Below are positions 3,679 to 43,616 of a DNA stretch of 64,000 bases, in pieces. The stretch's first letter is position 1. The number at the start of each line of letters is the position of its first letter. The stretch is from a virus (Duplodnaviria > Heunggongvirae > Uroviricota > Caudoviricetes): IMG/VR virus record IMGVR_UViG_3300009514_000009. The stretch is one strand, 5' to 3'. The position numbers and the translations under genes are program-made. A model generated the notes under the pieces. The model was not told where the DNA came from and did no database searches. It worked only from the letters and a program-made list of their open reading frames with translations.

Positions 3679-3924
3679 CTACCGTTGTCGTTGGTGTCGT
3701 CGCCGTCGTCTTCGGCTGGGGGAGTCGTCGAGCTGGGCTAGGGCTTCGTGGAGCTTCATGGTCGCTTCGGCGTCGGCCTTGGCGTACTGGGTGAGGGCTG
3801 CCTCCGGCCAACGTGCGGGCCAGACGGCCTGCTTGGCCCAGTCGCGGTCCACGGGCAGGTCGGTGAAGAACCGGGGCACAAACGGTGCCGGGTCCTCCTC
3901 CCAAAAGGACTCAGGCAGAGGCAC
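3679..3924 (-). CDS. Small protein of the MPLPxxFWEED N-terminal-motif family.
   Basis: Begins MPLPESFWEEDP. Overlaps the next gene by 14 nt. Confidence 0.5.
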   Translation of the reverse strand: MPLPESFWEEDPAPFVPRFFTDLPVDRDWAKQAVWPARWPEAALTQYAKADAEATMKLHEALAQLDDSPSRRRRRRHQRQR

Positions 3925-4159
3925 GGATGGCCTCCTCCAAGGCTGCGAGGAACCGGGGGTCTTCGGCGTCGTGGACTTCGGTGATGCCTTCTTGGGCGAG
4001 TCGTCCCAGCACGATGTCGATGCGGGGGACAGTGGTGAGCTGTTTGGGCAGGAGGACGTTGCCGCAGTCGCAGGTGACGGGCAGGTCGCCGATGCAGGGC
4101 GAGTAGCACTTGCCGCAATAGGTGACGGGCTCGGTCCAGAACTCGTCAGACAGGGGCAT
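3911..4159 (-). CDS. Small Cys-rich protein of the MPLxxxFW family.
   Basis: Begins MPLSDEFWTEP. Contains CGKCYSPC...CDCG, a likely zinc-binding motif. Confidence 0.5.
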   Translation of the reverse strand: MPLSDEFWTEPVTYCGKCYSPCIGDLPVTCDCGNVLLPKQLTTVPRIDIVLGRLAQEGITEVHDAEDPRFLAALEEAIRASA

Positions 4160-4586
4160 CGGCGAGCAGCTCCTTGGCCTTCTCGGGCGTGATGATGTCC
4201 ATGTCGATCAGCCGCTTGATCTCGTCCATTTCGATCTTGGCGTAGTCGATGGAGATGGTGCCTGTGACCTTGCCGGGGACGTACTTGCGTTCCTTGAGGA
4301 TCTGGATTTCGGGTGTGCTGTGTGTCCGGCCCGTGGTCGTGCGAGGCACGAAGTGTCGGATGGGTTCCCCTGTGGGCCGGGCGTCGATGAACCGGATGGG
4401 TTCGCCACCGTAGAGCATCCCGAAGTTGCTGGTCTTGGCCTTGTGCCGGACATCGGCAGTCATCGAGGCGGCGAGCTTGCGTCGTCCATCGTGGGTGCGG
4501 ATGGCGTCGAGGATGGCCGAGCGGAACTCGAAGGGGATGAGCACCACATCGTCGTCTTCTTCCCAGAACCAGTCGGGCAGGGGCAT
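4146..4586 (-). CDS. Protein of the MPLPxxFWEED family.
   Basis: Begins MPLPDWFWEEDDD. 146 aa with mixed composition. Confidence 0.55.
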   Translation of the reverse strand: MPLPDWFWEEDDDVVLIPFEFRSAILDAIRTHDGRRKLAASMTADVRHKAKTSNFGMLYGGEPIRFIDARPTGEPIRHFVPRTTTGRTHSTPEIQILKERKYVPGKVTGTISIDYAKIEMDEIKRLIDMDIITPEKAKELLADAPV

Positions 4587-4590
4587 GGGG

Positions 4591-5277
4591 TCAGTTCTCC
4601 TTGATGCGGCCTCGTTGCACGAGGCTGAGGTCCATCTCGTGGTAGAGCTTGTACTCGAAGACGAAGGCGAAGCAGTCCCCTGCTTCGATGGTCACGTCGA
4701 GGTTCTCGGCGTACCGCCCGAGCCCTTGGACGGGGACGGAGAGGATGTCGCCCTTGGGGATCTGGTGTGCGATGTGGATGTCGTACTTGCTGTCGTCTTC
4801 GACACGGGCTTTGGCCTTGGCGACGGCGGCGAAGGTGTGGGCCTCCATCAGCAGGAGGCGTGGTCCGCCGCTGCGCAGACTCTCGGGATCGTCGGCTGTG
4901 CGCAGGGCCTGAGCCACGAGCAAGGGCTCGTGGTGTTCGACGGTGAGGGGGGTGCCTTCGGCAAGTTCGTCGAGGATGGCCTCGTTGCAGCGGTCTTTGA
5001 GGACCATGCGGGAGCCTTCCAGCACCCGTTCGATGGCTCCTACGAGGTCGGGGGTGTCTCGTCGAACCTCGGTGCGCGTCTCGATGATGAGCGGCTCGCA
5101 GAAGGGCACACCCTCGGTGTCGGGGCGGAGGATGACGTGCGGGATGCACTTGGCGTGCTTCAGGGCGTCGAGGGTGGGCCGCACCATGGACTGGCCGAGT
5201 TTCTTGCGGCCCTCGGGTCCGACGAGGTGTTGGACGATGAGGGTGCGCTTCTCCTCTCTGGTGATGGGTGGTTGCAT
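4591..5277 (-). CDS. Hypothetical protein.
   Basis: ORF 4591..5304. Probable start is MQPPITREE at 5277, which overlaps the upstream stop. Confidence 0.5.
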   Translation of the reverse strand: MQPPITREEKRTLIVQHLVGPEGRKKLGQSMVRPTLDALKHAKCIPHVILRPDTEGVPFCEPLIIETRTEVRRDTPDLVGAIERVLEGSRMVLKDRCNEAILDELAEGTPLTVEHHEPLLVAQALRTADDPESLRSGGPRLLLMEAHTFAAVAKAKARVEDDSKYDIHIAHQIPKGDILSVPVQGLGRYAENLDVTIEAGDCFAFVFEYKLYHEMDLSLVQRGRIKEN

Positions 5278-5594
5278 CAGCCCTCCTCGTTGCAGATGGA
5301 ACACGGGGGAGGCTCGGCGATCTTGCAGCCCATGCTCATGGTGCTCTTGGAGCCGCCGTAGAGGGCGTCTGTCAAGGCGGTGCTCTTGGTCGGGTCGAAC
5401 TCGATGGTGGCTTCGACGCCGCGGTCGGTGACGGCCACGTCGGTCACCTTGCAGTGGTGAGCGGTGCCTTCAAGGTCACGGACGACGATGGTGCCCTTGG
5501 TCTTGATGTCGTCGGCGACGCCCTTGAGCGCGTCGTCGGTGACCTTGCTGCCATCGGGGGTTGTGCGCGGTGCGAGGGTGGTGCTGATCTTCAT
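5277..5594 (-). CDS. Hypothetical protein.
   Basis: The MKISTTLAPRTT start has a GGGAGAAC Shine-Dalgarno upstream. The listed N-terminal extension overlaps the upstream gene. Confidence 0.45.
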   Translation of the reverse strand: MKISTTLAPRTTPDGSKVTDDALKGVADDIKTKGTIVVRDLEGTAHHCKVTDVAVTDRGVEATIEFDPTKSTALTDALYGGSKSTMSMGCKIAEPPPCSICNEEG

Positions 5595-5995
5595 GTTGGG
5601 GTGTTCTCCGCGTGGGCTTGTTGCAGTAGAGCGAGGGCGTCCTTCTCCCACTGCTGTGCATCTTCCATGTTCTGGCAGGCAACCCACGACAGCGGGGCTG
5701 CTCTGCTCACCAGCTCGACGAATCGGGTGAGGAGGTCACTCATCAGTCCACATCCGCTGACCGTAGTGGTGCCTGTCAGTCGGTCGTCAATGGCCTTCAT
5801 CGCGTCGTCGCTGAGGGTGACGTGGACGATGGCAGCCGAGACGAACTCAGGGTCCAGCATAACCTTCGCCAGCTCGCCGTTGAGCCAGCTCGGTAGCTCC
5901 ATGTGGGAGAACTCGGTGCTGCAACAGAGAGCCTCGGGGGCGTGCTGGCCGGGGTAGAGGCACCGTCGTTGGCCAAACAGGACGTAGAGCTTCAC
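5591..5995 (-). CDS. Hypothetical protein.
   Basis: 134 aa ORF with a GTG start that overlaps the upstream stop. Confidence 0.5.
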   Translation of the reverse strand: MKLYVLFGQRRCLYPGQHAPEALCCSTEFSHMELPSWLNGELAKVMLDPEFVSAAIVHVTLSDDAMKAIDDRLTGTTTVSGCGLMSDLLTRFVELVSRAAPLSWVACQNMEDAQQWEKDALALLQQAHAENTPT

Positions 5996-6111
5996 AGGTA
6001 GTCTCCCTGCCGCCTCGGCTGCGGCTTCAGGTAGAGGTAGTAGTAGGAGAGCCCGCTGAACACGAGCAGGCCGACGAGGGCGACGCTGCCGATCACGATG
6101 GTCTTGACCAT
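5992..6111 (-). CDS. Small (39 aa) single-TM membrane protein. Not in the ORF track.
   Basis: ATG at 6111 follows GAGGAGGTAGGGC. Translation is MVKTIVIGSVALVGLLVFSGLSYYYLYLKPQPRRQGDYL, which is hydrophobic. Confidence 0.3.
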   Translation of the reverse strand: MVKTIVIGSVALVGLLVFSGLSYYYLYLKPQPRRQGDYL

Positions 6112-6122
6112 GCCCTACCTCC

Positions 6123-6569: not shown

Positions 6570-6585
6570 GTTGTCTCCTTCTAGC

Positions 6586-7141: not shown

Positions 7142-7984
7142 CTATTGTTCTACCCGTAGGCCGGGGTTGATGCAGTGTTTGGACAGCCAATCGAACAGCT
7201 TGTGGGCGTACAGCCGCTCCGCTCGTTCGATGGCTTCGTCGAGGGTCTTGCAGGCGGTCACGGCGACCTCGTGCCGGAACTTGCACTCGCTGTGCGTGAA
7301 CAGTGGGTTGAGCTGGCTGATGTCGATGTTGCCGCCGTACCGCCAGTGGTCGCCTTTCTTCTTGACCCCCACGGTGCCGATCTTGGTGCCGTTGCGGAAG
7401 ACGGTGCAGAGGGCACCGAAGTTGGTCGTCCCCTGCTTCCATGGCAGTCGTTGGCCTATGAGGTCTTCCACGTCGAGCCACTTGGCGTCGATCTCGTGCA
7501 GGTCGAAGGCGGCCCGGAAGGTCTTGGTGAGGTCGAGTATGAAGTTGTCGGGGTGCAGGTCGATGCGGATCTGCTCGATGGACACCTTGCAGATGTTTCG
7601 GTGGACCCACGACAGCCAGCCGATGGTCCCTTGATCCGTGGTGATGCGGCGAGTGGCCTTCTCGATGGTCGCCCCACCGCCGCTGCGGCCTCCGGGCCGG
7701 TTGCGCCCGATGGCCATGGCGACGTTCTGCCGCCAGAAGCCGTTCCACGTCACCTCGTTGTCGCCGGGCTTGGTTGCCCCGACGATGCCGACCCAGTGGT
7801 CTCCCATGCGGCGAGCGACGGTTTGCGGGCCACGGTTGAGCTGCTCCTCGGGCGTGCCGGAGGGGTACACCGTGGCCAGCAGCTCGCGGAAGGCCGGGAT
7901 GCGGTCTTCGACGAGACGCTGCTTGATTGATTCTTGGGCCTCGACGAGCGGGTCGTCCTCCCAGAAGTCATCGTCCCAGTTCAT
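7142..7984 (-). CDS. Hypothetical protein with an N-terminal FWEDDP motif.
   Basis: The real start is MNWDDDFWEDDP at 7984 (ATGA overlap). The ORF listed as 7142..8749 is partly a spurious extension. Confidence 0.55.
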   Translation of the reverse strand: MNWDDDFWEDDPLVEAQESIKQRLVEDRIPAFRELLATVYPSGTPEEQLNRGPQTVARRMGDHWVGIVGATKPGDNEVTWNGFWRQNVAMAIGRNRPGGRSGGGATIEKATRRITTDQGTIGWLSWVHRNICKVSIEQIRIDLHPDNFILDLTKTFRAAFDLHEIDAKWLDVEDLIGQRLPWKQGTTNFGALCTVFRNGTKIGTVGVKKKGDHWRYGGNIDISQLNPLFTHSECKFRHEVAVTACKTLDEAIERAERLYAHKLFDWLSKHCINPGLRVEQ

Positions 7985-8475: not shown

Positions 8476-9165
8476 CTACTCGCCAGCGGGTGCTTTTGAG
8501 CCTTCCTGCCAGCCGACCTTGACCTCGATGCCGAGGCGCTTCGCCACCGCTGCCCAGACGGGCAGGTTGGCCGCGGGGTGGAGGTAGAAGGTCACGTCGA
8601 GGGGCCAGTCGGCATAGTCCTTGGCCCAGCCGAGGGCCACCTCGGCGCACGTCTCGACGGGGCAGCCGTAGACCCCTGCGCTGATGGCGGGGTAGGCGAT
8701 ACTCTTGCAGCCCATGCCCAAGGCCACGAGGGCGGGCATCTTGTAGCACTCGCGCAGTGTCTGACGAGCCAAGTCCTCAGCCCGGACCTCGGTGACGCCG
8801 AACTTCATCTGCATACCCGCGAGGCTGCTCGCTGGGTTGTTGGCGAAGTAGAGGGCGGCATCCGGGTCCGTGGGCCAAACCGGGCCTGCCGTGTGGATGA
8901 CCCAGTGGCAGGGCAGGTTGAACGCGGGAGTTGGGACGGCTCCACCGTTGGGCACACGGATGCTCGTCACGGGCTCCAAGCCCGGCCCGTAGCCCTCTTT
9001 GTGGATGATGGGCAGGAGCTTGCAGGCCTCCCGCAGCCCCGGCCCGGCGGCCTTGTGAATGGCCCCGTCCGCACCCCCACCGCCGAGGCCCTTGTTGTTG
9101 GCTGGGTTGACGATCACGTCGCCGTTGAACGAGCAAATGTCACCTGCGATGAGGGTGATGTTCAT
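8476..9165 (-). CDS. Macro domain protein (ADP-ribose binding and hydrolysis).
   Basis: VNPANNKGLGGGGADGAIHKAAG is the classic macro-domain Gly-rich ADP-ribose pocket. Confidence 0.85.
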   Translation of the reverse strand: MNITLIAGDICSFNGDVIVNPANNKGLGGGGADGAIHKAAGPGLREACKLLPIIHKEGYGPGLEPVTSIRVPNGGAVPTPAFNLPCHWVIHTAGPVWPTDPDAALYFANNPASSLAGMQMKFGVTEVRAEDLARQTLRECYKMPALVALGMGCKSIAYPAISAGVYGCPVETCAEVALGWAKDYADWPLDVTFYLHPAANLPVWAAVAKRLGIEVKVGWQEGSKAPAGE

Positions 9166-9646: not shown

Positions 9647-10648
9647 CTACGGGGCTGGGGCCGGAGCCGGGGCTGGGGCCGGAGCCGGGGCCGGTTCGGC
9701 GGGTGCTCCGGTCGGCTGCTGCTTCTCCGCGGCCTCCTGAGCCTCCTGAATGCGCTTGAGCAACGCGGCGTCGAGGAGCCCTTGCGGCTGCAACCACTTG
9801 CTGGTGTCGAGCCCGTTGTTGGCCGCGTCGGTGTAGGGGATGAGGAACATATTGTTCGCCCCGTTCGCGGCGTCCTCCATCACGTCCCACTGCCGCCACA
9901 TGATGAGCTGCGGGCTCACGCTGGACGCGAGGATGCGGTTGGCGTCCGCCTGTGCCTTGGCCCTCAGCAGAGACGACTGAGCCTCGACACGGGCGAGAGC
10001 CAGCTTGCCTTCGGCCTCAGCCTTGAGTCGCAGGGCTTCCGCGTGGGCCTCCTTGATCTGCACCTCGCGCTCGGCGGCCTTGATCTCGGCGTTGGTCACC
10101 ACGTCGGGGAAGTCGAGGTTGCCCACCGTGACCCGCTTGACCCTGAAGATGCCACCGGAGGTCTTGGCCATCACAGCCGCCTTGACCTCCTCGATGATCT
10201 GGATGCGTTTCTCGACCAGCTCCTTCCGTGCGCTGTACTTGCTCACGATGCCGCGGGCCGTCTCGTCGGCCACGGGCAGCACGTAGGTCTCGTAGAGCTG
10301 CTGCGCCGTGAACACCTTGTTCTCGCCTGCGGGGATGAGGTTCTCGAAGACGTTGGCGACCTGATCGCCCTCCATGTCCACCGCGGCGAGGATGCCGAGG
10401 GTGAACTTGAAGTTGAGCTTGTCGGCGCACAGCACGTCCATCGGGTGGTCGAACTGCCGGTCGCTCGTCTCCATGAGGTACATCTCGCACCGCCCGAAGC
10501 ACGAGTGGCGACCCGGCTTGAGCAGCTCGCCTTGGAAGCCGCCGGGCTCCCATGTGCGGCCCGTGTGGCCCGCGGGGACGATCTTGTTGCAGCCGGTGGC
10601 CAGCAGGGTGAGGCCCAGCAGGGCCATGAGCAGGATCTTGGGGTTCAT
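9647..10648 (-). CDS. SPFH/band-7 (HflK/C, stomatin, prohibitin-like) lipoprotein.
   Basis: Lipobox LLATGC, an SPFH core, a long coiled-coil and a C-terminal (AP)n tail. Confidence 0.8.
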   Translation of the reverse strand: MNPKILLMALLGLTLLATGCNKIVPAGHTGRTWEPGGFQGELLKPGRHSCFGRCEMYLMETSDRQFDHPMDVLCADKLNFKFTLGILAAVDMEGDQVANVFENLIPAGENKVFTAQQLYETYVLPVADETARGIVSKYSARKELVEKRIQIIEEVKAAVMAKTSGGIFRVKRVTVGNLDFPDVVTNAEIKAAEREVQIKEAHAEALRLKAEAEGKLALARVEAQSSLLRAKAQADANRILASSVSPQLIMWRQWDVMEDAANGANNMFLIPYTDAANNGLDTSKWLQPQGLLDAALLKRIQEAQEAAEKQQPTGAPAEPAPAPAPAPAPAPAP

Positions 10649-14054: not shown

Positions 14055-14774
14055 CTACTTGCGGCTGTTGCCCATGATGCGAAGGATGAACAGGAGGAGG
14101 TTGAGGTAGTCGAGGTAGAGCCCAACCGCGTGTCCGGTAGCGGCTCCCCACCCCCGGACCCCGTGCTTGCCGTCGTGGTACAGCCGGGCGAAGTCCGCGA
14201 GGAAGTACAGGACGAACACCACCGCCCCGAGGATGGAGTAGCCCATGTCGATCTCGGTGCTCGGGATGCCCGTGAAGGCAGTCCACACGCCGTAGATGAT
14301 GAGGCCGAACAGGGCCAGCAGCAGTGGCCCTTCCATCTTGCGGTAGGGGATCGTGAAGATGCTCGCCACCGCCCCGCACACGGCCATGATGCCGGTCGTC
14401 AGGCCGATGGCGAAGGTCACCGACCCTGCCCCCAGCGTCTCCGAGTACATCGCGAAACACGGTCCGAGCAGCACGCCCCAGAGGGCTGCAAAGAGGCTCG
14501 CCGGGATCATCGCCGCCCCGTCCTTCTCCATCGCCTTGATGACGAAGATGAGCACGAGCAGGACGACGAAGATGATCCAGAACAGCGGGGTCGGGATCGT
14601 CGCCTCCCATGAGAGCAGGGAGGTCACGGCGGAGATGCCGAGCATCGCCACGAGGCACATCATCGTGCGGGCGAATAACAGGGTGCTCGTGTCCTCGCGC
14701 ATCCGGCGGACGCTGCGATCCACGAAGTCCTCGTTGCGGTCGTAGCTCTCTGCGAGTCGTTGCCAGTCCTGCAT
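14055..14774 (-). CDS. Bax-inhibitor-1/YccA family membrane protein (FtsH modulator family).
   Basis: About 7 TM helices with a BI-1/YccA-like hydrophobic pattern. Start MQDWQRL. Confidence 0.75.
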   Translation of the reverse strand: MQDWQRLAESYDRNEDFVDRSVRRMREDTSTLLFARTMMCLVAMLGISAVTSLLSWEATIPTPLFWIIFVVLLVLIFVIKAMEKDGAAMIPASLFAALWGVLLGPCFAMYSETLGAGSVTFAIGLTTGIMAVCGAVASIFTIPYRKMEGPLLLALFGLIIYGVWTAFTGIPSTEIDMGYSILGAVVFVLYFLADFARLYHDGKHGVRGWGAATGHAVGLYLDYLNLLLFILRIMGNSRK

Positions 14775-14776
14775 CT

Positions 14777-14917
14777 CAGCCCTCCGTGCCGTTGCGGATG
14801 CGGCCCTTGGCGGCACGGCGAACGGCCTTGGCGACGGCACGCTTGCCGAGGCGGTTGTTCACGAAGCCGCGCTTGAAGCTGCGGCCATTGAAGTTGCGGT
14901 CGTTGGGGTCACGCATC
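14777..14917 (-). CDS. Small basic protein (46 aa). Not in the ORF track.
   Basis: A motif copy and GGAGACGACCG precede the ATG. Translation MRDPNDRNFNGRSFKRGFVNNRLGKRAVAKAVRRAAKGRIRNGTEG. Confidence 0.35.
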
Positions 14918-20606: not shown

Positions 20607-22037
20607 ATGAACCGGCAAGCATTCCAGAGCAGCGTAGATCGACTGGCCCGGCGGGAGCTGCGGCGACGGATCGCCGCAGTCGATCTGGACATTGCGACGC
20701 CGCAAGAGCGCAGCAAGATCATCCAGTTCGTCGCGGCCATCGTGGACTCCATGTCCGATTCCGACGTGGCCTACGGCACCTACGCCATGACCGCCTTGCC
20801 GGACGACCGGGACCTCAAGAAGCTGCAAGATGCCCTGACCGCGGCCTACCGCAAGCGCCTCCTCAAGTGGTTCACCCACGCCATCCAGATCCGGGCGAAG
20901 CAGGGCGGTGGAGGCACGGGCCTCAAGAACCTCAAGGCGGGCATCGTCGCCTTCATCGAGAACCTGCCGCACCAGCTCGTGCGGGGCTACTCGCCGATGT
21001 CGGCGTTCGTCCGGGGCAACGTCACCGAGATCGTGGACGACGCCAAGCTCGATGCGGCCAGTGCCAAGATCTTCAGGGTCGTCGCGGCGGAGGCAGGGAA
21101 GTCCGGGCTGAACGTCCGCATCGCCCGAGCAGGCCAGCTCACGTTGGAGTGGGACGCGGCCAATCGCGTCTGGTTCATCCCCCCGAACCCCAAGACCTTC
21201 GACATCAAGGTCCAGCTCAGTCGCGGTGGGTTCCGCTGGAACAACCCCAAGCGACGTTGGGAGGGTCCGCGGCTCACTCCGGCCATCAAGAAACTGATCC
21301 CTGACCAGCGGGCGACCCCAGCTCCTGCTCCGGCGGCTCCTGCTGGGCCAGCGACGCTCGTGGACGAGGTGGCGGACTGGTTCTTTGACACTTGGCTGCC
21401 GCGGAACATCAAGCGGTTCGACACGGTGTTCAACGCCTACATCAAGTCGGATGAGACGAGCTATGCCTTCACGTTCAGCCTCAAGGCCCGCAAGGTCGTG
21501 GTCACGGTGGACCGTGACCTGAAAGGCCCCAAGGATGCCGTCGAGGAGCTGCGCTACCGCTACCTTGGTCGGCAGGGTCGCGGGCCGTGGTTGGAGGTGC
21601 TCGACCGCTACGTCGAGCTGACCAAGACGACGACCACGCGCAAGGTCGTCATGCTCATCGACCGGATGAACAACCTCCAGCACAGCAACGGGCTGTTCAT
21701 GGAGCACTTCCCGAAGTCCGTGCAGAGCTGGTACGAGCAGTTCCTCAACCGCAAGTACAGCGCAAAGAGCGCCCACGTTCTCGCCGGGTTCATCCACGAC
21801 TCGGACCTGCGGGACGTGATCCGGTGGCATGACTTCGCGAACAAGCCGACGTTCCGCGACCGCGGACAAGGCGCACCCGCCATCCCCATCGAGAAGAAGA
21901 ACCTGCCCGAAGGGCAGAACTGGCGGGCGAGGGGCTATCCCCGCGAACGGGGCTTCAAGCAGCCCGCCCGGCGGTCACCCGAGGTGCAGCGAGACCTCAG
22001 CGGCATCCCGAACGTCTGGGAGCCGCAGAAGCCCTAG
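20607..22037 (+). CDS. Large hypothetical protein (476 aa).
   Basis: Complex composition. No recognisable motif. Confidence 0.6.
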   Translation: MNRQAFQSSVDRLARRELRRRIAAVDLDIATPQERSKIIQFVAAIVDSMSDSDVAYGTYAMTALPDDRDLKKLQDALTAAYRKRLLKWFTHAIQIRAKQGGGGTGLKNLKAGIVAFIENLPHQLVRGYSPMSAFVRGNVTEIVDDAKLDAASAKIFRVVAAEAGKSGLNVRIARAGQLTLEWDAANRVWFIPPNPKTFDIKVQLSRGGFRWNNPKRRWEGPRLTPAIKKLIPDQRATPAPAPAAPAGPATLVDEVADWFFDTWLPRNIKRFDTVFNAYIKSDETSYAFTFSLKARKVVVTVDRDLKGPKDAVEELRYRYLGRQGRGPWLEVLDRYVELTKTTTTRKVVMLIDRMNNLQHSNGLFMEHFPKSVQSWYEQFLNRKYSAKSAHVLAGFIHDSDLRDVIRWHDFANKPTFRDRGQGAPAIPIEKKNLPEGQNWRARGYPRERGFKQPARRSPEVQRDLSGIPNVWEPQKP

Positions 22038-22480
22038 CAGAGCTTCATCTGGCGGCGGTCCCTCCACCATCGCTTGAGCGACGCCTGAGCCGTGTTCACG
22101 GGCATCCGCGTGGCGTCCTTCACCAGTGCGATGGCCTCATTGACCTCGGCGACCTTGCCCATGTGCAGCAGCACGGCGGCTGCCGCGCAGGCGCTCCGGC
22201 TCACACCCCGTCCGCAGTGGATTAGGACGCGGCGGCCTTGGTCGAGGCAGCCCTCGGCCAGCTCGACGATCATGTCGAGGTCGTCGGCTTCCCAGCGGTG
22301 GGTGTGCGTGCCAGTCGGCGGGATGTGCAGCACCTTGCTCAGGTGCTCGTGGCTCAGCCCCTCGACCGTGCAGTCGAAGATGTCGTCGAACTGCGCACCG
22401 ATGGCGGGCACTTCTCGCTTGCCAGCGATCATCAGGGGCAGGTTCTGTAGGGGCTGTCGCATCACGTAGTCCTCCGTCAC
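22034..22480 (-). CDS. Dual-specificity/tyrosine protein phosphatase.
   Basis: VLIHCGRGVSRSA is the HCxxGxxRS P-loop. Confidence 0.75.
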   Translation of the reverse strand: MTEDYVMRQPLQNLPLMIAGKREVPAIGAQFDDIFDCTVEGLSHEHLSKVLHIPPTGTHTHRWEADDLDMIVELAEGCLDQGRRVLIHCGRGVSRSACAAAAVLLHMGKVAEVNEAIALVKDATRMPVNTAQASLKRWWRDRRQMKLC

Positions 22481-23455: not shown

Positions 23456-23926
23456 CTACTTGCGGAAGGCCTCGACCACCGCGTCAGCCATCCTTTCCAT
23501 CCAGCCGCTGCCCTTGAACTGCTCCGACAGGGCAACGCGGGTCCAGTCCTTGAACCGGGGGAAGTCGTTGAACTGCATCTGCCGAATCTGGTCGAAGCAC
23601 TTCGGGTGCTTGCTCTTGTAGATCGCGATGCAGCGACCTCGCTTGAACCCGTTGTCGTCCACCCCAACGACCACGGCGGTCGCTTCGTCAGGGTCCGTCA
23701 AACAGCGAAGGGCCTCGTGGCCCGGCGAGTGGTGGTAAACCACCAGAGGGAACGGGAGCACGCCGTCCGGCAGCACATCGAGCGTCGGATGCCGTTGCAT
23801 GATCTTGTCCGCGAGGGATGACGCCTCCAATCGGGGCTTGTTTGGGGTGAACCTGAGAGACACCATGAAGGCCGTTTTGCGGTCGTGTCCGCTGGTTCCG
23901 ATGTCGCTTTGGCGAATTGTGATCAT
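23456..23926 (-). CDS. Hypothetical protein.
   Basis: 156 aa. A motif copy lies at 23927-23985. Confidence 0.5.
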   Translation of the reverse strand: MITIRQSDIGTSGHDRKTAFMVSLRFTPNKPRLEASSLADKIMQRHPTLDVLPDGVLPFPLVVYHHSPGHEALRCLTDPDEATAVVVGVDDNGFKRGRCIAIYKSKHPKCFDQIRQMQFNDFPRFKDWTRVALSEQFKGSGWMERMADAVVEAFRK

Positions 23927-24876: not shown

Positions 24877-25679
24877 CCCTTGCGGACTTGGACCGCGAGC
24901 TTGGGCAGGAACTCCTCGGCCTTGGCCCGGATGTGGGTCATCCCGTCCAGCTCACCCGCGTTCGGGTCGATGTTGAACATGGGCACGGCTGACTGGTAGG
25001 CCGCGGTCATCATCATGTCGGTGATCGTCACCGCGAACGAGGTGCCTGCGAAGATGAGCACCGTCATCTGGTCCATGAGCCGCTCGATATGGTCCATGCC
25101 GTAGGCGTAGTGCCCAGAGTAGCTCTCGTCGAACCACAGGACGTGGGCTCGCAGGTACTTCGCGCACAGCGGGCAGCGAGGCACCGTTTCCAAGCACGGA
25201 TTCTTGCGGAACTCGGCGAGCAAACCTTCGTCCCAGTCGATGAGCCCCTTGGGCGGCCCCTTCTCGCAGTAGCGGTTGGTGCAGCGCATGTACCGAGCCG
25301 CACCATGGCACTCGGTGACGTGGCGGCTGCCAGCCTTGAGGTGTAAGCCGTCCACGTTCTGCGTGATCAGGTCGAACCCCCGGTCCTGCGCCTTGTGCCA
25401 CTGCTCGATGTCGGCGATGGCTTGATGCGCAGGGTTGGGCTCGGCTGCACGGCACTTGTCGAACCGGCTCAAGTACCAGCTCCACGACTGGTCCGGGTGC
25501 CGGAGGAAGAAGGCGTTGGTCCCCTTGTCCAGTACGTCCTGCTCCCACACCGCATCAGCCGTTCCTCGGAACGGGGCGATGCCGGAGGCGATGGAGATAC
25601 CCGCCCCGGTCACGAAGACGGCGTGGGAGTTGTCGGCCCTGAACAGCTCCAGCAGTTGCTCGGTGGCAGTCACACTCAC
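24873..25679 (-). CDS. SIR2-family (CobB-like sirtuin) NAD-dependent deacylase / ADP-ribosyltransferase.
   Basis: GAGISIASGIAPFRG, QNVDGLH and a CxxC...CxxC zinc module. GTG start overlaps the upstream TGA. The ORF-track N-terminus is R-rich artefact. Confidence 0.8.
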   Translation of the reverse strand: MSVTATEQLLELFRADNSHAVFVTGAGISIASGIAPFRGTADAVWEQDVLDKGTNAFFLRHPDQSWSWYLSRFDKCRAAEPNPAHQAIADIEQWHKAQDRGFDLITQNVDGLHLKAGSRHVTECHGAARYMRCTNRYCEKGPPKGLIDWDEGLLAEFRKNPCLETVPRCPLCAKYLRAHVLWFDESYSGHYAYGMDHIERLMDQMTVLIFAGTSFAVTITDMMMTAAYQSAVPMFNIDPNAGELDGMTHIRAKAEEFLPKLAVQVRKG

Positions 25680-26077
25680 TGGAGTGTCTCCCCGCCGACC
25701 TCGGGCAGGGCCTCGGCGGGCACGGCCTCCCCCTCGGCCACGAGCACGTCGAACAGCTTCATGTGGTAGCCATTGCCCGTCTCCTTGGTCCCCTGCCACA
25801 CGATGCGCACAGGGTGGCCCACAGGAGCCAGCGAGGCGTCCATGAGCTGGATGACCCGCGTGCCAGACACCATGTAGCTCCGGTCGAGCGGGACGTGGAC
25901 GATGATGACCTCGTACTGCCCGTGAGGGCCGTCCCGAAGGCTCTTGCCACCGTAGAACCCGACCAGCTCGGTGCCGATCTCCTCGGGCCTCCACGAGATG
26001 GGGGTGGCGACCTGCCGCCACTTGTACTGCTCGCGGATGCGCTCTGCGCTCCGGCTCTCCAACGTCGTGTCGCTCAT
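25676..26077 (-). CDS. Hypothetical protein, translationally coupled to the sirtuin gene.
   Basis: Start MSDTTLESRSAERIREQYK. Confidence 0.5.
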   Translation of the reverse strand: MSDTTLESRSAERIREQYKWRQVATPISWRPEEIGTELVGFYGGKSLRDGPHGQYEVIIVHVPLDRSYMVSGTRVIQLMDASLAPVGHPVRIVWQGTKETGNGYHMKLFDVLVAEGEAVPAEALPEVGGETLQ

Positions 26078-26272: not shown

Positions 26273-26689
26273 TCAGTCCCCCCGTAGCAGGTCGTTGATG
26301 TCCCGCACCTGCGGCACGGGCTTGCGCTTGAGTGCGCGGTTGATGGCCTCGACGACGCCGAGCAGGTACTCCTTCGCGCCCTTGATGGCCTTGATCAGCT
26401 CCGCCTCGTCCTTCGTGCGCAGCTCGTGGATGAGCACCTTGGTCACCCGCTTCTGGCCCGCAGGGATGATCCTCTGCAAGAACCTGAAGTGCAGGTCACG
26501 GTCGCCACTGCTCCGGCGGCCTGCCAAGATGACCCGGATCTCGTACTCGTTGAACTTCACCTCGGCGTGGAACGAGCCGCCCATCGAGTTCGGACAATGC
26601 ACGTCGCAGCCCTTGAACACGTCTTCCAGCAGGGCCTTCACGTCGAGGATGCCGAGGGGCTTGTCGTCTGGATCGTCGCTCATGCTCAC
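26273..26689 (-). CDS. Hypothetical protein.
   Basis: 138 aa. Confidence 0.5.
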   Translation of the reverse strand: MSMSDDPDDKPLGILDVKALLEDVFKGCDVHCPNSMGGSFHAEVKFNEYEIRVILAGRRSSGDRDLHFRFLQRIIPAGQKRVTKVLIHELRTKDEAELIKAIKGAKEYLLGVVEAINRALKRKPVPQVRDINDLLRGD

Positions 26690-26690: not shown

Positions 26691-27215
26691 TCACAACACC
26701 CGGTCGCCGGGCCACTCGGTGACCACCGACCGGATCTTGCCGGTCAAGGTCAGGTAGTCCGCGGTCCCCTTCAACGCCTCTAGCGCATTGTCGTCTTCGA
26801 CCATCACCTGCCACCCGCTGTTGGCGTGCCGCTTGATGATGCAGTCCCGTTGGCCGGGGTCGATGCCCTCGTAGGCTTCGCTCAACGTCTTCAGCAGCTT
26901 GGGCGTGATCCGCAGCCACCCCACTGGATGGGCCATGTTCGACACGAAGCCGATGACCAGCCCGTAGACGTAGGCGTCCCGCCTGCTTCGCTGCACGTTG
27001 ACCACCACTGGAGCGCGGGTCTCTGGCCTCGCCCACGAATGCTCCGGCGGTGCCCACGACACACGCAGTTCGTCACCGGGGTTGATGCGCAAGAACCTCG
27101 TCGGCGTGGGGAAGTTGCTCAACCCCTTCACCTTGAAGGGGAACCCGGACACCGCGGGTGGGGCCACCGGGTCGAGGGGGTCGTCCCAGAATGTTGGGTC
27201 AAGGGGCATGGCCAC
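26691..27215 (-). CDS. Protein of the MPLxPxFW(D/E)(D/E) family.
   Basis: Begins MAMPLDPTFWDDPLDP. Confidence 0.5.
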   Translation of the reverse strand: MAMPLDPTFWDDPLDPVAPPAVSGFPFKVKGLSNFPTPTRFLRINPGDELRVSWAPPEHSWARPETRAPVVVNVQRSRRDAYVYGLVIGFVSNMAHPVGWLRITPKLLKTLSEAYEGIDPGQRDCIIKRHANSGWQVMVEDDNALEALKGTADYLTLTGKIRSVVTEWPGDRVL

Positions 27216-29698: not shown

Positions 29699-31630
29699 TC
29701 ACGGGCGGCCTCCCAGACGGTTCCACATCTCGTCGATGCTGATGACCTCGGTGCCGTACTGGCGAGCCTTCTGGGCCTTGCCCGAGGTGCTGTTCGGGTC
29801 CTTCGTCACGAGGATGTCGAGCCCCTTGCTGACGCTCCCCTTGACCGACCCGCCCTGCGACTCGATGGCGGTCACCATCGTGGCGTCACGGAAGCCGGTC
29901 ATGCAGATCGACTTGTCCGAGAAGGGGCCGGTCGCCTTGGCAGCGATGGTGATGTGGGCACGCAGGCTGGCGATGACGCCGCGGTCGAGCAGGTCCCAGA
30001 AGCCGTCCACGAAGGCCTGCGCCTTCGTGTTGCCAACACCGGGGATGCTCGCCACGTCGGACACCTTGGCCTTGCTCATCTTGTTCAGGCTGTCGAGGCC
30101 CGCGTCCACCAGCGTCTTCGCCATCGACCGACCGATGAGCGGGATGCCCAGCGAGCCGATGAAGACGTGCAGCGGCATGGTCGTCGCAGCGTGCAGGTTG
30201 CGGAAGGCCTTGTCGGCGGTCCCGCCGACCTTCCGACCGCCCATGTCCATCGAGGCGACCACGGCGGGGTCGAGGGTGTAGAGGTCGGCGATGCGCTCGA
30301 CCACGCCCGTCTCGCAGAGCATGTCGATGAGGCTCGTGCCGAAGTGCAGCACCCCCACCTTGGCGATCCAACGCTTGATGGCTCCGCTGATCTGCGACGG
30401 GCAGGAGTCCCCGTTCGGGCAGATGAGGTAGGCACCGTCGCGGACCACGGCGGTCTGGCAGTCAGGACACGCGGTCGGGGTGTGCAGAGCCACGCCCCCG
30501 TTGCTCGCCAGCAGGGCTTCGACGTAGGGGATCACGTCGTTGCGGCGGGCGACCATGATGCCGTCGCCAGCAGCGATGGCCAGGGTCCCGGCGTCGCTGC
30601 ACAGCGTCTCGATGTAGTCGATGTTGTGCAGGCTCGCCTTGGAGACGTTGGCCCCGGCGAGGTTCACCGTGTCGAAGTCCGCGACCGGCGTGAGCCGCCC
30701 GGACTTGCCAACCTGCCAGCGAATGGCCCGCAGGGTGGTCGCCTTCTGAGCGTGCGGGAACTTCAGGGCGCGGGCACCGTTGGGGCGCATGTTCGTGTCG
30801 CCCATCGCCTCGCGGGCGTCCCGGTCGTTCACGTCCACGACCAGCCCGTCGATCTCCCAATCGAGCTTGTCCCGCGACTCGTCCACGTACTTGGTGAAGA
30901 TGCGGATGACGGTCGCGAGATCATCGGCGGGGTGGTGCGGCGGGCAGACGAAGCCCATCTGCTCCAGAGCGAGGATCTCGTGGTGCTTGGTGTCCAGCGG
31001 CACCCCATCGGGGAGGTACTGGTAGGCGACCACCGTGAGGTACTGCGCCTTGGCGTAGTCGGTCTGCCGCTTGGCAGTCCCAGCCGCGGTGTTGCGGGGG
31101 TTCGACTCGCCGGGGAAGTGCGCCTTGAACTTGCTCTTGCGGCAGACGATTTCGCCCCGCACGTTCACGTCGTCCGGGCACGTCGGCGGGAGCACTCGCA
31201 CGGCACCTTCCATCAGGAGCACGTTGCGGGTGATGTCTTCGCCCTCGGCCCCGTCTCCGCGGGTGATGGCAGCCACCAGCTTGCGCTGCCGGTACACGAG
31301 GTCGATGGAGATGCCGTCCAGCTTGTGAGTGATGCACACCGGCTTGCCGGGCCACCACGACCGAAGCTCGTCGTGCCCGTCGCCCGAGGCGGCGTCGAAC
31401 TGGCACTTCTTCAAGCTGCCCATCGGGATGGCATGGGCGGCCTTGGGCCACGACCCGCCCGTGGGGGCAGGGGCACCGATCTTCTGGAGGTGCGGATGGT
31501 TGGGGTCGAGCGCCCGCAGCTCGTCTTCCAGCTTGTCGTAGGCTGCGTCCGACATGATCGGGTTGCCGTTGCGGTAGGCGAGGTTCGCCTCATGCAGCCG
31601 CTTGGCAAGGTCTGTGATCTTGGTGCTCAT
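29699..31630 (-). CDS. ligA: NAD+-dependent DNA ligase.
   Basis: 643 aa. An N-terminal adenylation region (KLDG-type) with HhH and BRCT-like C-terminal parts. The NAD-binding Ia motif AAYDKLEDELRAL is present. Confidence 0.9.
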   Translation of the reverse strand: MSTKITDLAKRLHEANLAYRNGNPIMSDAAYDKLEDELRALDPNHPHLQKIGAPAPTGGSWPKAAHAIPMGSLKKCQFDAASGDGHDELRSWWPGKPVCITHKLDGISIDLVYRQRKLVAAITRGDGAEGEDITRNVLLMEGAVRVLPPTCPDDVNVRGEIVCRKSKFKAHFPGESNPRNTAAGTAKRQTDYAKAQYLTVVAYQYLPDGVPLDTKHHEILALEQMGFVCPPHHPADDLATVIRIFTKYVDESRDKLDWEIDGLVVDVNDRDAREAMGDTNMRPNGARALKFPHAQKATTLRAIRWQVGKSGRLTPVADFDTVNLAGANVSKASLHNIDYIETLCSDAGTLAIAAGDGIMVARRNDVIPYVEALLASNGGVALHTPTACPDCQTAVVRDGAYLICPNGDSCPSQISGAIKRWIAKVGVLHFGTSLIDMLCETGVVERIADLYTLDPAVVASMDMGGRKVGGTADKAFRNLHAATTMPLHVFIGSLGIPLIGRSMAKTLVDAGLDSLNKMSKAKVSDVASIPGVGNTKAQAFVDGFWDLLDRGVIASLRAHITIAAKATGPFSDKSICMTGFRDATMVTAIESQGGSVKGSVSKGLDILVTKDPNSTSGKAQKARQYGTEVISIDEMWNRLGGRP

Positions 31631-33624: not shown

Positions 33625-35178
33625 ATGGCAGCGAAGATCATCGAGAGCGTCACCCTCAACTTCACCGACCTCACCGGAGCCAAGACCGGCTGCACCACGC
33701 TGGGCAGCAACAAGTTCTGGAAGGGCTGGGTCGAAGACAACGGGGACGGCACTGGCAACTTCTGCTGCCAGTGGGGATCTACCGGCACCGCTGGGAGCAC
33801 CAACGGCTCCAAGCACGGCATCCCCCTAGCGACCGCGATCAAGAAGTTCAAATCCAAGCGCAATGAGAAGCTCAGGAAGGAGTACACCGAGCTTCAGGTC
33901 CGCGACGACGCGGAGGAAGCCGCCAAGCAGGCCGCCGCGGGCGTCGTGCCTGTCGCCGCGCCCAAGGCCACCATGGCCCCCAAGGCCGTCGTGAGCCGCA
34001 CGTTCCACCCGGACGTGAGCCGCCTGCTCGGCACCATCTACGGCTCGACCGCCAACACGGTTCGTGGTGGCCTCTCGGCGCAGGCCGGGTCCACCGACGA
34101 GAACCCCATCGGCAACCTGAGCGACAGCCAGCTCAACGTCGGCGGTGGCATCCTCGACGAGATCGAAGCCCTGCTCCAGCAGCAGTTCGGGCGGGAGGAC
34201 GCGACCAACAAGACCATGACCCTGCCGCTGGGCCGCGACGGGCTGCCCACGGCCCGCGTCATCGAGCTGACCAACGAGTACATGAGCAACGTCCCCCGGA
34301 GCATCGCCCGCGAGGACCGGGGCCGACGCAACCTGCACAAGCTCGTCGTGAGCAGCTACGAGCGGTTGGAGGAACAGCGCAAGTTCCTCCAGCTCCTCCG
34401 CGACGCCCACGTCTCCAAGGCCGTGTTCGCGCAGGCTGCCCAGCAGACCTCGACCGGCAACAAGGAGGTCGTGTGGTACGACGGGCTCGGCTGCGACATC
34501 AAGGCCCTGTCCCCGAGCGACCCCGGCTACAAGTTCGTGGCCGAAGTGTTCAACACTGCGCAGTCCAAGCACAACGCCAACTGGTTCCGCGGTGGCCGCT
34601 GCATCCTGCGGCTGGTCCGGGTCTACAAGTTCACCCGGCAGGGCACCGAGACCGCCTTCGACGCCTACGGCAAGACCGTGACCGCGAAGCGCGGGGCGAC
34701 CGGGCAGGTCTTCGCGTGGCACGGGACGCGGACGCCGAACCTGCTGGGCATCAGCAAGTCCGGGCTCCTCATGCCCGAGAACCTGCCCCGAGGCGTCCAC
34801 ATCAGCGGCAAGGCCTTCGGGCGCGGCATCTACCATGCCCCCGCGTGGAATGCGACGGGCACGGCGAAGGTCGGCCAGCACAAGACGGACGGCACCAACG
34901 GTGCCCTGAAGTCGATGAACTACACGGGCGTCGGCGGGGCCTACTACGGCGGCAACGACCGGGGCAACGCCTTCATGTACCTGCAAGAGCTGGCTCTCGG
35001 CACCCCCGAGGTCCGGCACTCGGCCTGCTGGGACCAGCACCGCCCCAAGGGGTTCCCGCAGAACGACTGGATCTACGCCAACGCGGGCGGCTGCCACAGC
35101 CTCACCCACGATGAGGTCGTCACCTTCGACGAGCGGGCGCAGATCTTCCGCTACCTCGTCGAGGTAGCGGTCGGCTGA
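33625..35178 (+). CDS. PARP-like ADP-ribosyltransferase with an N-terminal WGR domain.
   Basis: WGR region SNKFWKGWVE...CCQWGSTGTAG. The catalytic region has FAWHGTRTPNLLGISKSGL (H-G-S/T), GKAFGRGIYHA (Tyr), and HDEVVTFDERAQIFRYLVEV (catalytic Glu region). Confidence 0.8.
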   Translation: MAAKIIESVTLNFTDLTGAKTGCTTLGSNKFWKGWVEDNGDGTGNFCCQWGSTGTAGSTNGSKHGIPLATAIKKFKSKRNEKLRKEYTELQVRDDAEEAAKQAAAGVVPVAAPKATMAPKAVVSRTFHPDVSRLLGTIYGSTANTVRGGLSAQAGSTDENPIGNLSDSQLNVGGGILDEIEALLQQQFGREDATNKTMTLPLGRDGLPTARVIELTNEYMSNVPRSIAREDRGRRNLHKLVVSSYERLEEQRKFLQLLRDAHVSKAVFAQAAQQTSTGNKEVVWYDGLGCDIKALSPSDPGYKFVAEVFNTAQSKHNANWFRGGRCILRLVRVYKFTRQGTETAFDAYGKTVTAKRGATGQVFAWHGTRTPNLLGISKSGLLMPENLPRGVHISGKAFGRGIYHAPAWNATGTAKVGQHKTDGTNGALKSMNYTGVGGAYYGGNDRGNAFMYLQELALGTPEVRHSACWDQHRPKGFPQNDWIYANAGGCHSLTHDEVVTFDERAQIFRYLVEVAVG

Positions 35179-41904: not shown

Positions 41905-41922
41905 CCTCGGGACCCCCAGTGC

Positions 41923-42930
41923 CTAGAACCAGCTCACACCGAACTTGGCGTCCTTGGCCTCGTCCCAGTAGACGAACTTCTTGCACTGGGCCAGCGTGTA
42001 CACCCGCAGCAGCTCCTCGCCGAACGTCGTCTCGCCCTTGACCAGACCCTCGACCCACTGATGGTGCCACCACTCGGCTCCACCGTAGCTGCCGCCCGAG
42101 AAGAAGCTCTTGCGCCCGCTGATGTTCATGAATCCGTGGGACCATGCCAGTCCGGTGAAGTCGAACGCCTGACCTGTCCACTCGACCGTGGAGAGCTGCG
42201 TGTACCGACTGTCGTTGCGCCGCCTCTTGGTCGTGCAGACGGTCGCCTGTAGCGTCACCACGGGCACCGTGGACGCCAGAGAGGCTGAGGGGTCCACCAC
42301 CCGGCACCAGACCCGCCAGCGGCGGCTCCCCGGCTCACGGACGCAGATGAACGGGTCGGTCTTCGGGTTGCCCAGCGAGCTGTACGTCGCGAGGTCGAAC
42401 GCCCGGCCCGTGTAGTGGAATGACTTCCTCGACCGGGACGGCGAGGCCTTGGACGACAGCCCTCGCTTGCCTCCCGCCGAGGTCATGTAGCCGCCGCGGG
42501 CCACCACGTCAGCGTGCAGTTTCTTGTAGGCCACCGCCGTGTCCGACCGGAGGGTCGTCGTCTTGTAGCCGTGGCCATTGGGCATGGGCGTCGCTGGGCA
42601 CTTCACCCAGCTCAGCTTGGCCTCGTCGCTCTCCTTGCGGTCCAGCGGGGGTCTGGCCAGCACGAAGCCGAACTCGGGCTTGCCCTTTTCGCCGCAGTAG
42701 TGGTTCCACTCGGCGAAGGAGCCGTCGCCGAACAGGCCGTCCGGGTAGAGCTTGACCTTGGCCTGCCAGTCCTCGACCGCGGCCTCGGTCTTGTCGCCGT
42801 AGAGGCCGTCCGCGGCACCGGGGTGGAATCCGAAGTAGGCCAGCCCCTGTTGCAGGTGCTTGACCTTGGCCTTGTCGTTGTCACGGCCCTTGGCGAGTAA
42901 CATGGCGTCCTCCGTGCGTGGGTGCGCCAT
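41923..42930 (-). CDS. Endolysin: peptidoglycan-binding domain plus an M15 (VanY-like) peptidase.
   Basis: PG_binding_1-like VKHLQQGLAYFGF...DGLYGDKTEAAV. SFHYTGRAFDL is the M15 SxHxxGxAxD motif. Confidence 0.7.
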   Translation of the reverse strand: MAHPRTEDAMLLAKGRDNDKAKVKHLQQGLAYFGFHPGAADGLYGDKTEAAVEDWQAKVKLYPDGLFGDGSFAEWNHYCGEKGKPEFGFVLARPPLDRKESDEAKLSWVKCPATPMPNGHGYKTTTLRSDTAVAYKKLHADVVARGGYMTSAGGKRGLSSKASPSRSRKSFHYTGRAFDLATYSSLGNPKTDPFICVREPGSRRWRVWCRVVDPSASLASTVPVVTLQATVCTTKRRRNDSRYTQLSTVEWTGQAFDFTGLAWSHGFMNISGRKSFFSGGSYGGAEWWHHQWVEGLVKGETTFGEELLRVYTLAQCKKFVYWDEAKDAKFGVSWF

Positions 42931-42960
42931 GCACCCTACAAGCAGAGGGCCATAGAACGA

Positions 42961-43377
42961 TCAGAGCAGCTTCAGTTCGCCCGTGATGGCGTCGATGGCC
43001 TCGGCGTCAGCCGGGCCGATGGCAATGCAGGTTGGGGTCTTGACCCCGTGGAACTCCGTCTTGCCCGCATCTTCGATGAGCGCACAGGGCAAGTTCGCAG
43101 CCATCGCCTGCTGATGCAGACGGAGCAGCTCCTCCTCGGACTTCACCTGCACACAGACCTTGGTGAACAGCCCGAAGACCCACTTCTCCTCCTCACGAGT
43201 GAGCAGGGGGATTCGCAGTTCCGGTGGAGCCCCTACATCCGCCGGGGACCGGATGACCGGGTAGTGCGCCTGCGCTCGGTCGAAGAACACCTTCATGCTC
43301 GCGTGCGCCCCTTGGGCGATCATCTTCCCCTTGCGCATCCCAAGGTCGGTTCTCATCACGAGGACCTGCTTGATCAT
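42961..43377 (-). CDS. Peptidyl-tRNA hydrolase, PTH2 family.
   Basis: MIKQVLVMRTDLGMRKGKMIAQGAHAS matches the PTH2 signature. Confidence 0.7.
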   Translation of the reverse strand: MIKQVLVMRTDLGMRKGKMIAQGAHASMKVFFDRAQAHYPVIRSPADVGAPPELRIPLLTREEEKWVFGLFTKVCVQVKSEEELLRLHQQAMAANLPCALIEDAGKTEFHGVKTPTCIAIGPADAEAIDAITGELKLL

Positions 43378-43616
43378 CGTGAGGCCTCCGTAGGAGGCCA
43401 CTGGATGTATATGCCCGTATAGTCGTGGTAGCAATCGGGGCAGCGGTCGTCGGGATGAACCATCTCTGGCAGCCTCCTGATGCGCATGTGGCCCTTGGGC
43501 AGCTCGGTGATGCCACAGCGGTAAGGGCCTCTTACGTCCCCGATGTGGGTGATGTGACCCTTCCCTTTGCCAATGTCCTTCGGGGGCTCCTCCCAGAACG
43601 CCGGGTCCAGTGGCAT
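43374..43616 (-). CDS. Protein of the MPLxPxFWEE family (80 aa).
   Basis: Begins MPLDPAFWEEPP. Cys/His-rich C-terminus (DRCPDCYHDY). Confidence 0.5.
   Translation of the reverse strand: MPLDPAFWEEPPKDIGKGKGHITHIGDVRGPYRCGITELPKGHMRIRRLPEMVHPDDRCPDCYHDYTGIYIQWPPTEASR

Follow-up and report, generated by a model that had tools for sequence, protein, structure and literature searches.

Six genes with a common N-terminal peptide

The stretch of DNA analysed here, hereafter the window, comprises 64,000 nucleotides of a virus of the Caudoviricetes (IMG/VR record IMGVR_UViG_3300009514_000009). Six genes on its minus strand, three of them in tandem, encode proteins that begin with a short common peptide, hereafter the tag. 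Their open reading frames (ORFs) and N-termini, as listed in a first-pass annotation, were confirmed. Five of the coordinate pairs given there stand, whereas the gene listed as 26691..27215 (P4) most likely starts with the ATG at 27209 (MPLDPTFW), because the database copy P0003 (100% identical) and the orthologues P0004 and P0005 are all called from this Met, and because the 21 bases displayed in frame before the P4-type ATG of the relative L133 contain no other start codon. The six genes are:

3679..3924, minus strand: P1, 81 residues, GTG start, (M)PLPESFWEEDP; Arg-rich basic C-terminus; 14-nucleotide overlap with P2
3911..4159, minus strand: P2, 82 residues, starts MPLSDEFWTEP; CxxC...CxC clusters in the body; 14-nucleotide overlap with P3
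4146..4586, minus strand: P3, 146 residues, starts MPLPDWFWEEDDD; first gene of the tandem trio
7142..7984, minus strand: P6, 280 residues, starts MNWDDDFWEDDP; looser tag (W3...F7-W8 plus acidic residues)
26691..27209, minus strand: P4, 172 residues, starts MPLDPTFWDDP; start moved from 27215 to 27209
43374..43616, minus strand: P5, 80 residues, starts MPLDPAFWEEPP; Cys/His-rich body; directly upstream of a PTH2 peptidyl-tRNA hydrolase gene

Upstream of every tagged gene lies a Shine-Dalgarno-like site (AGGAG/GGAGG) or an overlap with the stop codon of the preceding gene, and the trio P3-P2-P1 is located upstream of a 482-residue methyltransferase-like gene. Five of the six genes begin with M-P-L-[P/S/D]-x-x-F-W followed by acidic residues, P6 having a looser form. 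The DNA pattern RTGCCNCTN(10)TTYTGG matches five times in the window versus 0.01 times expected from 100 dinucleotide shuffles; the expectation from amino-acid frequencies is 3e-4 per 85 genes, and the probability of five or more occurrences is ~2e-20. In six-frame scans, FW[EDT][EDP] is found seven times in the 64 kb, six of them at the tagged N-termini, and W[DE][DE][DEP] is confined to the tagged genes; a scan of every possible start codon revealed no additional tagged gene in the window. The first 15 residues carry a net charge of -3 to -7 in nearly all listed members, and downstream of Trp8 an acidic residue (Glu or Asp) usually occupies position 10, W8-x-E/D being present in most listed copies.

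Because homologues of P6 bear the motif two to eight residues from their Met, the core is wider than the MPL form. As read from the alignments, it is a hydrophobic residue, three variable positions, [F/L]-W and acidic residues, often closed by Pro, with MPL as its commonest N-terminal form. The motif MPL...FW of the first-pass annotation is thus real, whereas MPL is not its defining part. The tag, which that annotation would have given up had it been no more frequent than composition predicts or absent from homologues, exceeds the compositional expectation and is present in homologues.

Relatives on contigs of 332–399 kb retain the tag in the orthologues of five genes (P1, P2, P3, P4 and P6). 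The 332-kb relative (L123) has orthologues of P1, P2, P3 and P6 at the syntenic locus, every one of them tagged; that of P2 is 88% identical and starts MPLSDEFWVEP, and that of P1, with 56% identity overall, has an identical tag. The P3 orthologues P0002 (70% identity, 332-kb contig) and L142_12813 keep it as well. All eight P6 homologues (44–91% identity) have a hydrophobic-x3-[F/L]-[W/F] motif with an acidic run two to eight residues from the Met (for example, MGLDDQFWDD, MPNEPKGLTESFWDDDPD and MTKPDINDLLWSDGE), and P6 is therefore a genuine member.

The set of tagged genes at these loci is variable, differing among the window, L123, L130, L138 and L142. In the more distant locus L142, where P6 is 65–68% identical, the trio is replaced by a 107-residue P3-type gene and an unrelated 67-residue gene, both tagged and again overlapping by 14 nucleotides. 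L130, an 8.75-kb contig of the Joint Genome Institute (JGI) found in a scan with a specific DNA pattern, contains six tandem genes of 171–185 residues that all begin MPLP..FW; P4-type genes number one in the window, two in L138 and six in L130. Variable tandem arrays of this kind are likely arms-race loci. A search of IMG/VR for related loci with P3 and P6 gave no match.

Some sequences resemble the tag in part. Directly after a P4-type gene, L137 has an ORF (1618-1719) that starts MPLPDWFYGKG, with FY for FW and no acidic run, and a minus-strand ORF of L123 (19334-19582) starts MPLPDLTIMTKG, with the MPLPD portion only; these degenerate forms may represent decaying or diverging tags. A loose DNA pattern gave two single matches in IMG/VR (L001 and L002), and an overly loose pattern run over genome contigs gave 120 single chance matches, which were not used. 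In L001 (IMG/VR UViG_3300028842_000338, a 29-kb contig with 64% guanine plus cytosine (GC)), a 179-residue ORF at 5261-5800 starts MPLLAPFWDDDP / MPLLAPFWDDDPDSW right after a stop codon. It has no PHROG match, no likeness past the tag and no family match; it may be a coincidence or an occurrence of the tag beyond the huge-phage clade, and it is not relied on here.

For codon analysis, 20 copies of the tag from the window and five relatives were aligned. Codon positions 1 and 2 of Pro2, Leu3, Phe7 and Trp8 hold 1.7–2.0 bits, as against 0.22 bits at the third position of Pro2 and 0.68 bits at that of Leu3; codons 4–6 are variable. Because positions 1 and 2 are constrained while third positions vary, the tag is, by this codon pattern, under purifying selection as a peptide and not as a DNA or RNA site. 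The trio genes overlap by 14 nucleotides (RTGCCYCTGYCTGA), and the same stop/start overlap recurs in the tandems of L123, L130 and L142; it arises because the TGA of the upstream gene falls within codons 4–5 of the next one (CCT-GAN or TCT-GAN, encoding Pro4 or Ser4 and Asp5 or Glu5). Such an overlap common to the tandem copies, in arrays that clearly expand and contract by duplication, could speak for an element at the nucleic-acid level, such as a translation initiation or coupling signal or a recombination boundary for cassette shuffling, or for a non-functional leftover of recent 5' gene conversion between duplicated genes. This explanation is very improbable: the third positions of Pro2 and Leu3 are free although the amino acids are invariant, codons 4–6 differ, the non-tandem genes P4, P5 and P6 keep the peptide without the overlap, the tag survives in homologues of 26–47% identity, and the peptide is retained in the P6 family although its position shifts. 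On the codon-position pattern, the tag was rejected as a DNA or RNA signal.

Protein bodies and the P4 family

For comparison of the bodies, residues 1–12 were deleted before BLASTP and profile searches. The tagged proteins shortened in this way form nine BLASTP groups, and with L130_1666, which joins the P4 family at full length, about eight distinct bodies result. All six window bodies fall apart, in agreement with the earlier statement that these proteins share their N-terminal peptide only; the sole residual likeness is a weak one between the bodies of P2 and P5 (34% over 32 residues, E 0.002). The label "paralog family" applied to the six had to be abandoned, since P4 alone belongs to a real full-length family and the other members have only the tag in common.

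P4 is homologous along its whole length to the L130 genes (23–29% identity, E 1e-8 to 1e-13 in a small local database). After removal of the tag, L130_3793 and L138_5683 still match the P4-family profile (E ~1e-7), whereas P1, P2, P3, P5, P6 and L131_400 do not. When 1.84 billion representative proteins were searched in full by HMMER with the P4 profile, only nine family representatives (167–183 residues) emerged, which are all tagged, L3, F7 and W8 being invariant and the Pro at position 2 near-invariant. A motif-only profile of 14 columns was dropped: true members score 22–24 bits, which amounts to E-values of 7–50 in that database, beyond the limit of 10. By these comparisons, the P4 set (~175 residues) is the only true full-length family among the tagged genes. 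P1 was also considered as a truncated P4-type gene and rejected, as its BLAST match to L130_2210 (E 3e-10) includes the tag and nothing is left against the family profile without it.

Pfam-A, PHROGs v4 and NCBIfam 20 contain no above-threshold family for any of the six proteins; in total, the Pfam and PHROGs scans covered ~55 of the ~83 predicted ORFs of the window. Five of the six window bodies are 80–172 residues long, and four of these five are net positive; the exceptions are P2, which is acidic, and P6, which is conserved and has 280 residues. Most of the tagged bodies, those of the relatives included, carry charges of +3 to +7, and those of P2, L130_1666 and L131_400 are acidic or neutral.

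AlphaFold2 modelling of P4 with an 11-sequence alignment yielded a mean predicted local distance difference test score (pLDDT) of 61; a model made with 3 sequences (pLDDT 36) was unusable. In the former, residues 1–32 (the tag together with its Pro-rich linker) have no structure (pLDDT ~40), and residues 35–166 form a folded core (pLDDT 70–84); the tag is accordingly predicted to be disordered. The best structural matches of this moderate-confidence model are gp32 proteins, with no significant Foldseek match in the PDB and weak matches in BFVD. No membership of P4 in a family of single-stranded-DNA-binding proteins (SSBs) or of gp32 was found in Pfam, PHROG or NCBIfam, and a profile search of PDB sequences found no SSB. 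Zinc is bound in gp32 by a His/Cys3 site; the invariant columns of the P4-family alignment contain neither Cys nor His.

The P4-type gene or array is always situated between a deoxynucleoside monophosphate (dNMP) kinase gene and a conserved gene for a protein of ~136 residues, near the genes of a ligase and a topoisomerase. In the window, the latter neighbour is:

26273..26689, minus strand: protein of 138 residues (...DVKALLEDVFKGCDV...EVKF.EYE.RVI), directly downstream of the P4 gene or array

It is syntenic in the window, L130 (4897-5307), L133, L138 (6307-6717), L140 (917-1321) and L144, whatever the copy number of the array, and has no family match in Pfam, PHROG or NCBIfam. This context makes its product a candidate functional partner of P4-type proteins.

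The bodies of P3 and P1 contain short strings reminiscent of DNA polymerase A. In P3, "RHKAKTSNFGMLYGG" fits the O-helix (motif B) spacing R-x3-K-x3-F-x3-Y; after it come "TGRTHSTPEIQ" and "DYAKIEMDEI", similar to TGRLSS..NLQNIP and DYSQIELR, the order being permuted (B before A). The distant P3 orthologue (L142 12813-13136) retains "RARAKTAFFGTLYGG", "TTGKSTKLNIPK" and "ARIDMETIKRL", and P1 carries the ExoIII-like string "YAKADAEATMKLHEAL". Against Pfam DNA_pol_A and 3'-5' exonuclease, P3 and P1 score 15.8 and 15.2 bits, below the cut-offs of 34.3 and 23.6; a PDB search for a polymerase A origin gave a match with E 0.32, and a two-sequence profile gave no match. On these sub-threshold scores and the negative profile search, membership of P3 and P1 in DNA polymerase A was rejected, the likeness being limited to short motif-like strings; the two could be mini-proteins derived from polymerase fragments. 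P3 also has an internal tandem duplication of 12 residues at residues ~61–84 (GEPIRFIDARPT / GEPIRHFVPRTT), which is not found in its 70%-identical orthologue P0002.

Possible destinations of the tagged proteins

The tag is best read as a modular docking peptide acting at the protein level, and it is probable that one common receptor reads it. This is consistent with the roles proposed in the first-pass annotation (partner binding, localisation, packaging or degradation); a sliding clamp or sigma factor, its examples of a partner, was not found among the ~55 of ~83 window ORFs scanned against Pfam or PHROGs, nor in the precomputed Pfam labels of the fetched loci. Terminal peptides by which unrelated proteins are sent to one destination are rare and useful: one receptor, once found, would place all these "hypothetical" genes together in a location or pathway.

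Tentatively, the receptor may be the prohead, the tag serving for capsid targeting by analogy with the internal proteins of phage T4; this identification, which falls short of probable, is ranked above its main rival, docking on an SSB or replisome hub. The tagged proteins could then act in the following manner: The tag, carried by an N-terminal arm that is predicted to be disordered and precedes about eight unrelated bodies, mostly small (8–20 kDa) and often net-basic, would bind to the core of the assembling prohead. Diverse cargo proteins would thereby be packaged and later ejected into the host along with the DNA, and the prohead protease would probably strip off the tag after the conserved W-x-E/D. 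If so, the tag marks an arsenal of ejected proteins and could serve for cargo loading. The prohead is favoured because the anatomy of the tagged proteins parallels the T4 system of capsid-targeting sequence (CTS) and internal proteins, as well as precedents in giant phages.

The CTS of T4 (MKTYQEFIAE) has been turned into a tool for packaging foreign proteins in capsids, and the T4 genes ipII and ipIII are adjacent. It is a 10-residue N-terminal peptide common to otherwise diverse internal proteins, which are small (8, 10 and 20 kDa), basic and not conserved between related phages, a variability thought to be driven by an arms race; targeting is driven by residues 4 and 7 of the CTS and cleavage by residues 8 and 10 (PMC9026906; PMC3012670). 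The tag resembles it in several respects: it spans ~10 residues, stands at the very start of unrelated, small and mostly basic proteins, the genes of which vary between related phages, and has key hydrophobic or aromatic residues near positions 4–8 and an acidic residue at position 10, the place of cleavage by the T4 protease. A short conserved N-terminal peptide (10–20 residues) on unrelated bodies, the mark of T4-type CTS proteins, is thus found here, and so are small basic bodies that vary between relatives, as expected of T4-type internal proteins, save for P2 and P6. W8-x-E/D, as read from most tag copies, would be compatible with prohead-protease cleavage at hydrophobic-x-Glu. In contrast to the T4 internal proteins, one tagged family (P4) is syntenically conserved and apparently SSB-like, and host clade and genome size are unrelated.

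In the giant phage SPN3US, gp53 and gp54 have an identical 15-residue N-terminus and 34% identity overall (PMC5694885). As in these proteins and the inner-body proteins of phiKZ, a short N-terminus is kept here while the rest drifts, and copy number varies between phages (PMC5694885). The SPN3US and phiKZ proteins, however, are homologous throughout (pfam12699) and have propeptides of >100 residues, whereas the bodies of the tagged proteins are unrelated and without a Pfam match. Cargo-loading peptides of encapsulins and encapsulation peptides of microcompartments likewise bring unrelated cargo into a shell by means of a short terminal peptide and a flexible linker, and the encapsulin shell has the HK97 fold, as in phage capsids; these peptides differ from the tag in being Gly/Ser/Leu-rich and C-terminal, or amphipathic helices, and they belong to cellular systems. 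The shared terminal address peptide is a known principle; this motif, its protein families and this phage clade are apparently not described in the libraries searched.

Several observations weigh against the prohead as the receptor. Genes for virion proteins, scaffold, portal or prohead protease were not seen among the scanned window ORFs or in the precomputed Pfam labels of the fetched loci, so that the context offers no link to head assembly. The P4-type gene is conserved beside the genes of dNMP kinase, topoisomerase and NAD (nicotinamide adenine dinucleotide)-dependent ligase, and the P4 model resembles the replication SSB gp32, so that for P4 a replication role fits better than a cargo role. 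Compared by eye with the T4 CTS, the tag shows no apparent homology, only Phe7 and the acidic position 10 coinciding. Moreover, some members have Asp and not Glu at position 10, and in T4 an Asp at CTS position 10 blocks processing (PMC9026906).

The conserved surroundings of P4 bear on an alternative in which the tag docks on an SSB or replisome hub, P4 being a compact gp32-like ssDNA-binding protein with an oligonucleotide/oligosaccharide-binding (OB) fold and an acidic, aromatic N-terminal arm. The arm would dock either on the core of a neighbouring P4, for cooperativity of the kind that gp32 owes to its N-terminal arm, or on a partner in the replisome, in the manner of the SSB C-terminal tip and the T7 gp2.5 tail, and the other tagged proteins would use the same site. 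The C-terminal tip of E. coli SSB, the C-terminal tail of T7 gp2.5 and the terminal arms of T4 gp32 are models of such an arrangement: an acidic stretch, in which an aromatic residue is critical, is joined by a flexible linker to an OB-fold core, and in gp32 contacts between neighbours are made through the N-terminal arm. The tag, too, is acidic and aromatic and followed by a flexible Pro-rich linker, the synteny of P4-type genes with dNMP kinase, topoisomerase and NAD-dependent ligase holds in all relatives, and P3 bears its polymerase A-like strings. The P4 model is of moderate quality, however, with nothing significant in the Foldseek comparison with the PDB; P4 matches no SSB or gp32 family in sequence, and an essential SSB would hardly be expected as six tandem paralogues, the number in L130. 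Known acidic SSB tails are C-terminal, use the free carboxylate of the last residue and are not common to other proteins, and the N-terminal arm of gp32 is basic; a mimic of the SSB C-terminal tip was rejected on consensus and polarity. Docking on such a hub is thus possible, if doubtful. It is rather unlikely, in particular, that the tag is the arm of a new compact gp32-like SSB family, inserting into the neighbouring core and driving cooperative filaments, and that this arm was copied onto small proteins of unrelated kinds. The recipients, namely Zn-ribbon proteins, a polymerase-A-derived mini-protein and the 280-residue protein, would use it to dock on SSB-ssDNA filaments, to cap them or to remodel them. 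An SSB-like hub would be a new way to organise a phage replisome, and the arm would constitute a phage-encoded "SSB arm code", one peptide addressing a set of factors to replication or recombination intermediates. The beta-clamp motif (QL[SD]LF or QLxLxL; N-terminal in Hda) is a further short hydrophobic peptide that may sit at the extreme N-terminus, and it has the same four-residue spacing from Leu to Phe. Gln is absent from the tag, as is a conserved Leu at motif position 4, and an invariant Trp with an acidic run is foreign to clamp motifs; as two alignments, that of the P4 family and a second one in which Pro2 is invariant too, show invariant L3, F7 and W8 and no Gln, the tag was rejected as a beta-clamp-binding motif.

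Two other explanations invoke neither a capsid nor a replisome. The tag could act in cis as an acidic mask, an autoinhibitory DNA mimic that folds back onto its own basic nucleic-acid-binding body and needs no shared receptor; its charge of -3 to -7, set against +3 to +7 in most bodies, and the flexible linker between tag and body would suit this. Such a mask is improbable, since it leaves the invariant Leu3, Phe7 and Trp8 across unrelated bodies unexplained and since the bodies of P2, L130_1666 and L131_400 are acidic or neutral. Still less credit is given to a shared degron, by which a host or phage protease or adaptor would remove early effectors on schedule: an exposed, predicted disordered N-terminal peptide on diverse small proteins would be suitable, but the tag is unlike bacterial N-terminal degrons (L/F/W/Y at residue 1 for the N-end rule; basic N-motifs for ClpX), its distance from the N-terminus varies in the P6 family, and the gene context has no protease link.

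The phage and its accessory genes

No relatives of the window were found among 50,697 deposited phage records by megablast and blastn of the trio region or by tblastn of P3, and the window ligase matches known phages at only ~30% identity. Orthologues of window genes sit on metagenomic contigs of 332, 354 and 399 kb. From the lack of a deposited relative and the size of these contigs, the window is taken to be a fragment of an uncultivated huge phage. The tagged proteins belong to a clade of such phages, rich in GC, with contigs of 330–400 kb and known from metagenomes only. A 109-kb JGI contig carries a protein identical to P3. The GC content of the window is 62–68%. Minus-strand genes predominate; they make use of Shine-Dalgarno sites and GTG starts, and their stop and start codons overlap. 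Its products include NAD-dependent DNA ligase, a topoisomerase-like protein, dNMP and thymidylate kinases, a PARP with WGR domain, Sir2, Macro domain, CinA, PTH2, methyltransferases, a dual-specificity phosphatase (DSP), a histidine kinase with response regulator, a Bax-inhibitor-like protein and an SPFH protein.

In the 332-kb relative (L144 13984-20049; ENA ERZ24794647 NODE_41), a Cas3-like gene (832 residues), Cas6 (195 residues) and three adjoining genes are present, which, judged by these genes, is a phage-borne CRISPR-Cas locus. In the window, approximately the same place is taken by Sir2 (24873-26021) and an HNH-repeat protein (23923-24876); accessory cassettes in this neighbourhood therefore differ between close relatives.

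The single tRNA gene of the window (56491-56567, minus strand; labelled tRNA-Pyl by ARAGORN) has a CUA anticodon and would read amber codons. TAG apparently still serves as a stop codon in the window, for example upstream of P4, and the tRNA is possibly a suppressor tRNA of the huge phage.

Several genes are odd for a phage: a Bax-inhibitor-1-like membrane protein (14055-14840), an SPFH/Band 7 protein (9647-10648), the DSP (22034-22480), the PTH2 peptidyl-tRNA hydrolase (42961-43377) and a PAS histidine kinase with response regulator (58001-60117). Genes related to NAD or ADP-ribose are unusually dense, comprising the Macro domain protein (8476-9165), Sir2 (24873-26021), the NAD-dependent ligase (29699-31630), the PARP with WGR and regulatory domains (33625-35178), CinA (45155-45697) and a second WGR protein (60677-61699), and NUDIX genes are present in a relative. 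As judged from these gene assignments, the cluster suggests an NAD-centred counter-defence or manipulation of the host.

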